Positions 34,358 through 35,667 of a DNA stretch of 64,000 nt are shown here, one piece after another. Under the pieces are notes generated by a model. The model saw nothing but the letters and a program-made list of their open reading frames with translations. It was not told where the DNA came from and did no database searches. The position numbers and the translations under genes are program-made. The stretch lies in NCBI RefSeq assembly GCF_009909105.1, contig NZ_JAAAPK010000002.1:221827-285826 (forward strand), in the 5' to 3' direction. Origin of the DNA: Corallococcus exiguus (GTDB taxonomy: Bacteria; Myxococcota; Myxococcia; Myxococcales; Myxococcaceae). Every line of letters starts with the position of its first letter. The first letter of the stretch is position 1.

Positions 34358-35005
34358 ATGGGTGATGGACCGCTTGGCATTTCGTGTGACTGGCAGCAGA
34401 CCATCCAGCAGCGCCCCCAGAAGAACATCCCGGTGGGCTACCTGCTGGACATCAAGGGGATGGGCAAGGACGACGGCTCGTTCCCCAAGAGCAGCAGCCT
34501 CTTCTACACCCCGTTCGTCGGCGATCCCGCCTACGCCGGTGTGGCGTTGGAGGACGTGGGCGCGAAGAAGGCCGTGCGCGCGGTGGGCCTCATCACCCAG
34601 CTCCAGTGGGAGGGCGGCAAGCTCGACCCCATTGACTTCACGGTGCTGATCTCGCCGGAGAACAAGGCGGACTTCACCGGCATCACCAACACGGAGATCC
34701 GTCAGCTCAAGTTCTGGATCTGCGAGTGGGACAGCGCCCAGGGCAAGTGGTTCGAGAAGTGCTATCCGCTCGGTGACGAGGCCGGTGGCCCCGCCAACGA
34801 GATGTCCGCCCGGCTGAACCAGAAGGGCAGCGAGGTGATGATGCACGTGGGTGATCCGGAGAACGTGGGCGTCACGGACGTCAAGTTCTGCCAGATGACC
34901 TTCCAGCTCATCCCGGACAAGGCGCACCTGTGCAACATCCACTACGGGCACAACTCGCTGGACAAGGACGTGTACGCCTGGGGCTACGTCGAAGGCAAAC
35001 AGTAG
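34358..35005 (+). CDS. unknown protein in canonical hcp position (possible divergent Hcp-like tube protein); paralog of 35068-35667
   Basis: 215 aa directly after tssC. Segment VGYLLDIKGMGKDDGSFPKS loosely resembles the Hcp N-terminal D.FLKIDGIKGESKD motif; otherwise unrecognised. Confidence 0.55.
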   Translation: MGDGPLGISCDWQQTIQQRPQKNIPVGYLLDIKGMGKDDGSFPKSSSLFYTPFVGDPAYAGVALEDVGAKKAVRAVGLITQLQWEGGKLDPIDFTVLISPENKADFTGITNTEIRQLKFWICEWDSAQGKWFEKCYPLGDEAGGPANEMSARLNQKGSEVMMHVGDPENVGVTDVKFCQMTFQLIPDKAHLCNIHYGHNSLDKDVYAWGYVEGKQ

Positions 35006-35021
35006 TCAGCGGTTGAAGCAG

Positions 35022-35056
35022 GACGGGGAGGGCGGGAAAGCGCCTTCCCCGTTTCC
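35022..35056. terminator. candidate bidirectional stem-loop terminator between convergent paralogs
   Basis: GACGGGGAGGGCG-ggaaag-CGCCTTCCCCGTT imperfect hairpin centred in the 62-bp gap between the two convergent stops (35005 / 35068). Confidence 0.35.
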
Positions 35057-35067
35057 GCGTTAGGGGG

Positions 35068-35667
35068 CTACTTGTCAGAGCCCCACTTGGTGACGCGGCG
35101 CTCCTGGGAGTTGGTGGCGAACTCCAGGGTGGTGCTCTTCTTGGGCGCGGGCACCACCCGGAACTGGAAGCGGTGGAAGCGGATGTCCAGGTCCTCGGCC
35201 AGCGTGGCGGGCTGATTGTCCAGGAAGACCTTGGGGCGGCCCTTCTCCGTGTCCATCAGCGCCTCTGCGGAAGCAGGGCTCTTCAGCTTGGCGGCTTCGA
35301 ACCAGGTGTCACCCGCTTCATCGAAGTCGATGATGGCCCACGCCAGCTTCAGCCGCAGGTTGTCCAAGGGCTTGGCGAAGTGGTTGAGCACGTTCGCGGC
35401 CGTGACGCGGCCCACGTACACGGTGAAGTCCATGGGGCCGGAAGCACCATTCATGGCCAGCCGTTCAATGAGACCAATGCATTGCGCCTTGGGCCCGAAA
35501 TCACCCACCGTGGGGGAGAACAGGGTGAGGTCCTTCGCCAGGTTGAGCCCCCCGCAGCCGTTCCATTCCAGCAGATATCCCAGCGCTCCACGAAAGCCGG
35601 GCCGGTATTGAAACCCGGTCTGCCAATTGCATTCGAGTTCGAGTACGTCGGGCTTGGCGATGGGCAT
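35068..35667 (-). CDS. unknown protein, paralog of 34358-35005 (possible Hcp-like), convergently oriented
   Basis: Start at MPIAKPDVLELECNWQTG (ATG 35667, AAGGA upstream). Collinear similarity to the neighbour: CDWQQT/CNWQTG, GYLLD/GYLLE, DFTVLI/DFTVYV, KFWICEWDSAQGKWFE/LAWAIIDFDEAGDTWFE. Confidence 0.55.
   Translation of the reverse strand: MPIAKPDVLELECNWQTGFQYRPGFRGALGYLLEWNGCGGLNLAKDLTLFSPTVGDFGPKAQCIGLIERLAMNGASGPMDFTVYVGRVTAANVLNHFAKPLDNLRLKLAWAIIDFDEAGDTWFEAAKLKSPASAEALMDTEKGRPKVFLDNQPATLAEDLDIRFHRFQFRVVPAPKKSTTLEFATNSQERRVTKWGSDK

Follow-up and report, generated by a model that had tools for sequence, protein, structure and literature searches.

In a 64,000-nucleotide stretch of the Corallococcus exiguus genome (contig NZ_JAAAPK010000002.1, positions 221,827 to 285,826, hereafter the window), two neighbouring open reading frames (ORFs), ORF A and ORF B, lie next to the sheath gene tssC of a type VI secretion system (T6SS). 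From structure predictions we judge it probable that both are IglC-type tube-family proteins, and that the family to which they belong is the Hcp equivalent of a widespread T6SS lineage related to the Francisella type (T6SSii). Our analysis obtained the paralogy of the pair, its predicted fold, the type of its locus, the distribution of the family, the history of the duplication and the purifying selection on the two genes. The original prediction had called the two convergent paralogs of unknown family, which is exact down to the gene coordinates (Table 1). BLASTP aligns ORF A with ORF B at 26% identity over ~200 residues (E = 1e-16), a similarity far above chance level that identifies them as paralogs, and the motif pairs singled out in that prediction (CDWQQT/CNWQTG, GYLLD/GYLLE, DFTVLI/DFTVYV and KFWICEWDSAQGKWFE/LAWAIIDFDEAGDTWFE) all fall in aligned columns.

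The predicted fold is the evidence that carries the assignment. The model of ORF B, made with a 49-sequence alignment, is all-beta with one helix and has a predicted local distance difference test (pLDDT) score of 89.2 and a predicted template-modelling (pTM) score of 0.86. A fold search with this model, a check that the original prediction had proposed, returned IglC as the only significant Foldseek match of B (E = 1.2e-5, probability 1.0, template-modelling scores 0.63/0.61). The match spans 170 of the 199 residues, and the next-best matches are all Hcp or tail-tube proteins. Superposition covers 162-170 residues with IglC versus ~120-136 with Hcp, and in the structural alignments A and B share 11-13% identity with IglC. 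The predicted models of A and B, both computed as monomers, have the Hcp beta-barrel as well as the fuller IglC fold, namely an Hcp-like barrel with IglC-specific additions in a protein of ~200 amino acids (aa). In Francisella, IglC is accepted as Hcp homolog and tube protein, and its secretion depends on the T6SS (PMC5014421, PMC5924787). The proposal that the pair represents a duplicated, divergent tube protein thus gains support.

Several results weigh against this assignment. Confidence in the predicted model of A is only moderate. Neither A nor B matches any Pfam model at E ≤ 1, the IglC and Hcp families (PF11550 and PF05638) included, and these two families also miss 83 relatives (E ≤ 0.01); as a positive control, PF11550 scores genuine IglC at 484 bits. 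With hhalign, the family profile reaches 0.6% probability against IglC (query sequence verified against 2qwu) and 0.1% against Hcp1 (sequence unverified), and IglC receives 1.1 bits from the family hidden Markov model. Against PDB sequences, a profile search gave chance matches only (E ~0.7-0.9). An NCBIfam scan of A and B likewise gave zero matches at E ≤ 1, a silence that is uninformative because NCBIfam contains no IglC model able to detect even IglC itself. The IglC-type assignment accordingly rests on predicted structures, because these searches found no sequence link to IglC or Hcp, and the faint Hcp-like N-terminal motif suggested in the original prediction is not supported by the sequence statistics.

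A complete T6SS surrounds the A/B pair (Table 1). Among solved structures, the best relative of TssB is IglA (3j9o_A, 100.7 bits, versus 58.7 for M. xanthus TssB) and that of TssC is IglB (3j9o_B, 423 bits, versus 361 for VipB and 347 for M. xanthus TssC), so that by best-match evidence the sheath is of the IglA/IglB type found in T6SSii. ORF A directly follows the iglB-type sheath gene. The accessory set of T6SSii is present as well, comprising IglE, IglI, IglG and a truncated VgrG that is kept in related loci; the NCBIfam matches to T6SS_IglE, T6SS_IglG and T6SS_TssI_Fran fall below the curated equivalog cutoffs. The divergent baseplate of T6SSii, with IglD in place of TssK, no recognisable TssE, TssF or TssG, and the additional proteins PdpA, PdpC and PdpD, is not what we found: the TssK here matches only canonical TssK among PDB sequences, and none of the ORFs scanned has a Pdp-family match. 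Because canonical TssK, TssE and TssF are present, we call the locus T6SSii-related rather than a member of T6SSii. The related loci L001-L014 and L016 have syntenic orthologs of the gene in the tssG position. The 543-aa protein encoded between tssE and tssF has zero matches in Pfam, NCBIfam and PDB sequences, and may be a gp27-like spike hub complementing the short VgrG.

Table 1. ORF A, ORF B and the T6SS genes around them (positions in the window)
Feature	Position	Strand	Description
ORF A	34358..35005	+	predicted IglC-type (Hcp-equivalent) tube protein, slot-1 paralog; 215 aa, acidic, isoelectric point (pI) 5.0
ORF B	35068..35667	-	predicted IglC-type tube protein, slot-2 paralog; 199 aa, neutral, pI 6.7
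G+C-rich hairpin between ORF A and ORF B stops	35021..35054	.	14-bp stem, 6-nucleotide loop; candidate bidirectional terminator
tssB / iglA-like small sheath subunit	32197..32757	+	Pfam T6SS_VipA 1.1e-41; TIGR03358 1.3e-43
tssC / iglB-like large sheath subunit	32808..34325	+	Pfam VipB 2.7e-110
tssK, canonical type	30634..31887	-	Pfam T6SS_VasE 1.5e-36; TIGR03353 6.9e-95
Short VgrG-like needle protein, Francisella-style	30028..30606	-	192 aa; T6SS_TssI_Fran 3.1e-4; DUF2345 5.4e-5
DotU/TssL	29378..30016	-	Pfam DotU 3e-16; TIGR03349 2.5e-13
TssM/IcmF-like membrane subunit	25362..29063	-	Pfam IcmF_helical and IcmF_C; TIGR03348 6.7e-15
IglE-like lipoprotein (TssJ equivalent)	24853..25365	-	Pfam IglE_N 9.2e-31; NCBIfam T6SS_IglE 1.9e-9
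IglI-family protein, divergent from ORF B	35723..36709	+	NCBIfam IglI_fam 4.9e-68, 230 bits, cutoff 100
Conserved T6SS gene, tssG position	36726..37667	+	no Pfam match
tssE (gp25-like), start approximate	37664..38068	+	Pfam GPW_gp25 1.4e-6; TIGR03357 2.2e-7
543-aa conserved protein	38065..39696	+	between tssE and tssF, here and in related loci
tssF	39700..41367	+	Pfam T6SS_TssF 2.3e-21; TIGR03359
DUF4280 PAAR-like tip protein (IglG-like)	41369..41857	-	Pfam DUF4280 2.1e-34; NCBIfam T6SS_IglG 3.4e-12

Next we examined the wider family. Searched against 1.84 billion representatives, a profile built from A and B together with close homologs of theirs matches 561 clusters (defined at 50% identity) at E ≤ 1e-3; at the stricter threshold of E ≤ 1e-10 it matches 248. 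The members that we sampled all lack Pfam domains, and their names are uninformative. The nearest relatives of A and B are Corallococcus 'hypothetical proteins', and ORF B is 100% identical to one C. exiguus protein. Related loci were sampled with a Myxococcota-derived peptide pattern, which biases them towards Myxococcota, and copy number was judged within +/-10 kb of each match. As the original prediction had asked of other myxobacterial T6SS loci, family members do occur directly after tssC in related Myxococcota loci; in all, relatives hold this slot in L008-L012, L016, L019, L021 and L022. A single copy straight after tssC is found in Haliangiales (L016/L017) and in two metagenome loci (L019, 56% G+C, and L021, 42% G+C; the window has ~70%), and these single-copy loci also carry IglE_N, DUF4280, TssK, gp25, TssF and DotU. 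Two copies are found in all Corallococcus loci, in other Myxococcaceae, in Vitiosangium and Archangium, in L012 (a 'Pseudomonadota' metagenome-assembled genome, MAG) and in L022, and every Myxococcaceae and Archangiaceae locus examined retains the pair.

The order of the two copies differs between lineages. In Vitiosangium and Archangium they are in tandem on one strand (tssB-tssC-A'-B'-iglI), and in L011, L012 and L022 they are separated by tssK, with the second copy inverted. Given these arrangements elsewhere, the convergence seen in Corallococcus is a local rearrangement and not a defining feature of the pair. In Kofleriaceae and related MAGs (L013 and L014; 9974-10591) a B-type member is the only copy in range; it lies ~3 kb from DotU, TssF, VgrG, TssE and DUF4280 genes, tssBC is absent within the range, and its product is acidic, unlike other B-type proteins. 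Family members are also found as orphans far from any T6SS gene (L018 10001-10705, L020 10001-10771 and L023 6147-6815). Two of these three are basic (pI above 9) with N-terminal extensions (234-256 aa), and the orphans' neighbours are small unannotated genes or beta-helix proteins.

The pair is an ancient duplication of the single tube gene that stands behind tssC in related loci. In a neighbour-joining (distance-based) tree of ~200 columns, all copies from lineages with a pair group in one clade (86%), to which the single-copy members do not belong. The B-type (slot-2) copies form a clade with 83-86% bootstrap that takes in the Kofleriaceae copies, and the slot-1 copies form two subclades, each well supported, which the tree does not resolve as a single group. 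Charge follows position: slot-1 proteins are acidic (pI 4.9-5.7, one at 6.7), as are the single-copy proteins after tssC (pI 4.2-4.9), and the slot-2 proteins of pair loci are neutral to basic (pI 5.7-9.2).

Purifying selection acts on both genes. Within Corallococcus, the ratio of nonsynonymous to synonymous divergence (dN/dS; Nei-Gojobori pairwise estimates in a genome with strong G+C bias at third codon positions) is 0.14-0.65 for A and 0.09-0.24 for B, up to 0.48 for B against L006. The synonymous divergence (dS) of A is unusually low, as in tssB and tssC, and that of B is the highest in the locus. As the raised dN/dS of A comes partly from this low dS, we do not take it as positive selection. 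We also considered whether one copy is a decaying pseudogene and rejected this, since neither gene is disrupted in any of the loci and dN/dS stays below 1.

On the model of Hcp and IglC, the A and B proteins would stack as hexameric rings within the IglA/IglB-like sheath, whose contraction would drive out the tube along with the DUF4280 tip and the short VgrG; ring and tube assembly, secretion and the role of each copy are our inference. Since no Myxococcaceae or Archangiaceae locus that we examined lacks either copy, the job of the tube is most likely divided between them. In the division that we prefer, ORF A would be the bulk tube subunit, because of its ancestral position, its co-transcription with tssBC, the low dS that it shares with them and an acidity like that of the single-copy proteins. 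ORF B would be a lower-abundance, specialised partner, because of its neutral to basic charge, its strong constraint and its separate transcription, and it may share mixed rings with A or make up a special ring of its own, such as one beside the baseplate.

Some of our findings speak against this division, and the choice of the bulk-tube copy is ambiguous. The dN/dS is lower in B than in A, and between Corallococcus and Archangium-group orthologs B keeps 43-46% identity but A only 26-30%. A profile of the single-copy members scores A and B about equally. Protein conservation favours B as the bulk subunit, and so do the Kofleriaceae loci, in which the sole copy within range is B-type and acidic.

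It is possible, though we hold it only tentatively, that the tube is an obligate heteromer, with A and B co-assembling into mixed hexameric rings throughout and neither sufficing alone. Universal co-retention, symmetric divergence and complementary charge fit such a heteromer: neither copy has been lost from any pair-bearing locus examined, the two are about equally diverged from their single-copy relatives, and the net charges of A (acidic) and B (neutral to basic) complement each other. Furthermore, the Archangium and Vitiosangium copies adjoin in one operon, and Bacteroides offers a precedent in its obligate Hcp2-Hcp3 heterohexamer (PMC13035841). Subunits needed at 1:1 would, however, be less expected to be arranged as in Corallococcus, where B lies on the opposite strand in its own transcription unit, or as in the loci where tssK splits A from B, and the strong gap in synonymous divergence between A and B suggests different expression constraints.

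Rather unlikely in our view is the reverse division, with B as the bulk tube and A as a fast-evolving minor Hcp that carries effectors, as in Bacteroidales, where minor Hcp proteins are variable effector adaptors (PMC13213661, PMC13035841). B is indeed the better conserved copy at both short and long range, and the dN/dS of A is among the highest in the locus, comparable to that of the DUF4280 tip. A also has lineage-specific loop insertions that are poorly predicted, and it is a B-type gene that stands as the only copy next to the baseplate genes of Kofleriaceae. Yet A holds the slot, the operon and the charge class of the single-copy tube genes, no effector-like gene co-segregating beside A was seen, and slot-1 proteins outside Corallococcus are well conserved among themselves. 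That one or both proteins are not tube proteins at all, being secreted effectors, chaperones or unrelated beta-barrel proteins that merely resemble IglC, is very improbable: the missing sequence similarity to IglC or Hcp, the orphan members and an IglC crystal structure itself without hexamers (PMC5014421, PMC5924787) would fit it, but the locus would then be left without any tube protein, L016, L019 and L021 carry one family member as their sole Hcp-like gene directly after tssC, the fold match of B covers most of the protein with only Hcp or tail-tube proteins next, and orphan hcp genes are common in canonical systems too (PMC13098142).

Around the pair itself, the start of ORF A lies 32 nucleotides (nt) past the tssC stop, and 9 nt 5′ of its ATG is a GGAGG ribosome-binding site; the ORF B protein starts with MPIAKPD. 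The stop codons of the convergent genes are 62 nt apart, and between them lies a G+C-rich hairpin (Table 1), which was spotted by eye and then confirmed by folding (-32.6 kcal/mol, z = -3.5, on the + strand; -25.4 kcal/mol, z = -3.2, on the - strand). A consensus promoter and terminator scan of 31.8-36.2 kb made zero calls, and it left the hairpin uncalled because the hairpin has no T-run. ORF B and the IglI-family gene start divergently with only ~55 nt between them (35668-35722), and their promoters must therefore overlap or sit within neighbouring coding sequences; the consensus scan detected no sigma-70-like promoter in this gap.

A second contractile injection system lies ~6 kb downstream of the T6SS (47787-64000) and has the appearance of an extracellular contractile injection system (eCIS) or phage-tail-like cluster. 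Among its genes are those for a sheath of the phage type (49624-52107), a tube of the T4 gp19 type (52671-53186), a CIS_tube protein (54141-55019) and a very large protein that contains Baseplate_J (56380-60633). We rejected its tube genes as a tube supply for the T6SS, since this is a separate phage-tail-like cluster with its own sheath.

On the other side, downstream of and co-oriented with the membrane-complex genes of the T6SS, a stretch on the - strand (13100-18997) has a G+C content of 0.59-0.62 compared to ~0.70 elsewhere. One of its genes is for a 589-aa protein that matches Lipase_3/alpha-beta-hydrolase and, weakly, LysM (17228-18997); two others encode proteins without family match (14347-16428 and 16248-17231), and the strand opposite to the lipase-like gene carries a gene for a pentapeptide-repeat protein (13471-14337). 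This stretch could possibly represent a lipase effector with its partners. The IglE-like gene is followed directly, on its own strand, by a gene for a 1949-aa protein with many HYDIN/ASH/DUF1573/Cep192-type Ig-like repeats (18994-24843, - strand).

A homolog of AMP-binding (adenylate-forming) enzymes is encoded at 41755-43437 (- strand). The gene recurs in such T6SS loci of distant organisms (L019 5975-7684, L021 5030-6730 and L022 4283-5914), beside IglE, DUF4280 or TssB genes; to our knowledge such enzymes are not a known T6SS component. Just past it, the product of 43434-44522 (- strand) has a weak match, far below cutoff (1.4e-5), to TraB of myxobacterial outer-membrane exchange.

T6SSii has recently been described as exclusive to Francisella (PMC12955703), with one survey adding Dongshaea (PMC13098142). 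Our literature searches for myxobacterial IglC homologs or a Francisella-like T6SS in these bacteria gave no relevant result. Tube proteins of T6SS that have the IglC fold are already known as a kind; what appears to be new is the large unannotated sequence family, its presence in Myxococcota and diverse metagenomes, and the fixation of two paralogs since ancient times. Part of this has implicitly been seen by database curators, because NCBIfam IglI_fam and Pfam IglE_N match the locus.

The assignment would give a function to a family of at least 561 clusters whose members are named 'hypothetical' in every source, and would supply the missing tube protein for a whole group of T6SS loci, which automated tools that require Hcp would score as incomplete. 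These Myxococcota and metagenome loci share the IglA, IglB, IglC, IglE, IglG and IglI set yet keep canonical TssK, TssE and TssF; the locus and its relatives look like an evolutionary intermediate, and they are found in non-pathogenic, culturable bacteria. More speculatively, an obligate two-subunit IglC-type tube, built of mixed acidic/basic hexamers or of alternating specialised rings, might be the signature of a widespread, undescribed lineage linking canonical T6SSi and Francisella T6SSii. If so, it would offer a tractable, non-pathogenic model for the IglC tube, whose assembled structure is still undetermined (PMC5924787). Retained tube paralogs of opposite net charge would parallel the heteromeric Hcp rings of Bacteroidales, making the pair a second, independent system in which to ask why contractile systems duplicate their tube protein.

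Compared to Francisella IglC (PDB 2qwu; PF11550; the T6SSii tube), the predicted fold is alike and sequence similarity is undetectable in our searches. Corallococcus has two paralogs where Francisella has one, its host is a soil myxobacterium rather than an intracellular pathogen, and its locus keeps the canonical TssK, TssE and TssF, whereas the Francisella island has no recognisable forms of them (PMC5924787). Canonical Hcp/TssD (PF05638; M. xanthus Hcp in PDB 5urw) is ~40-50 residues shorter than A and B, which do not match its family model. Major and minor Hcp proteins and Hcp heterohexamers are known from Bacteroidales (PMC13213661, PMC13035841). The Hcp1-Hcp2 and Hcp2-Hcp3 heterohexamers of that group (T6SSiii) consist of canonical-length or shorter Hcp in a different T6SS type, and its minor Hcp genes occur in four or more copies that co-segregate with effector cassettes, whereas Corallococcus has exactly two copies and no evident adjacent effector gene, and a heteromer here is a candidate only. 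Pvc-type systems combine a tube protein with baseplate-proximal tube paralogs. The same is the case in T4 (PMC5924787, Table 1). A and B match the paralogs in these sets (T4 gp19 with gp48 and gp54, Pvc1 with Pvc5) no better than they match ordinary tube proteins, and, unlike the T4 and Pvc tube sets, single-copy relatives of the T6SS type described here function without a second tube paralog.
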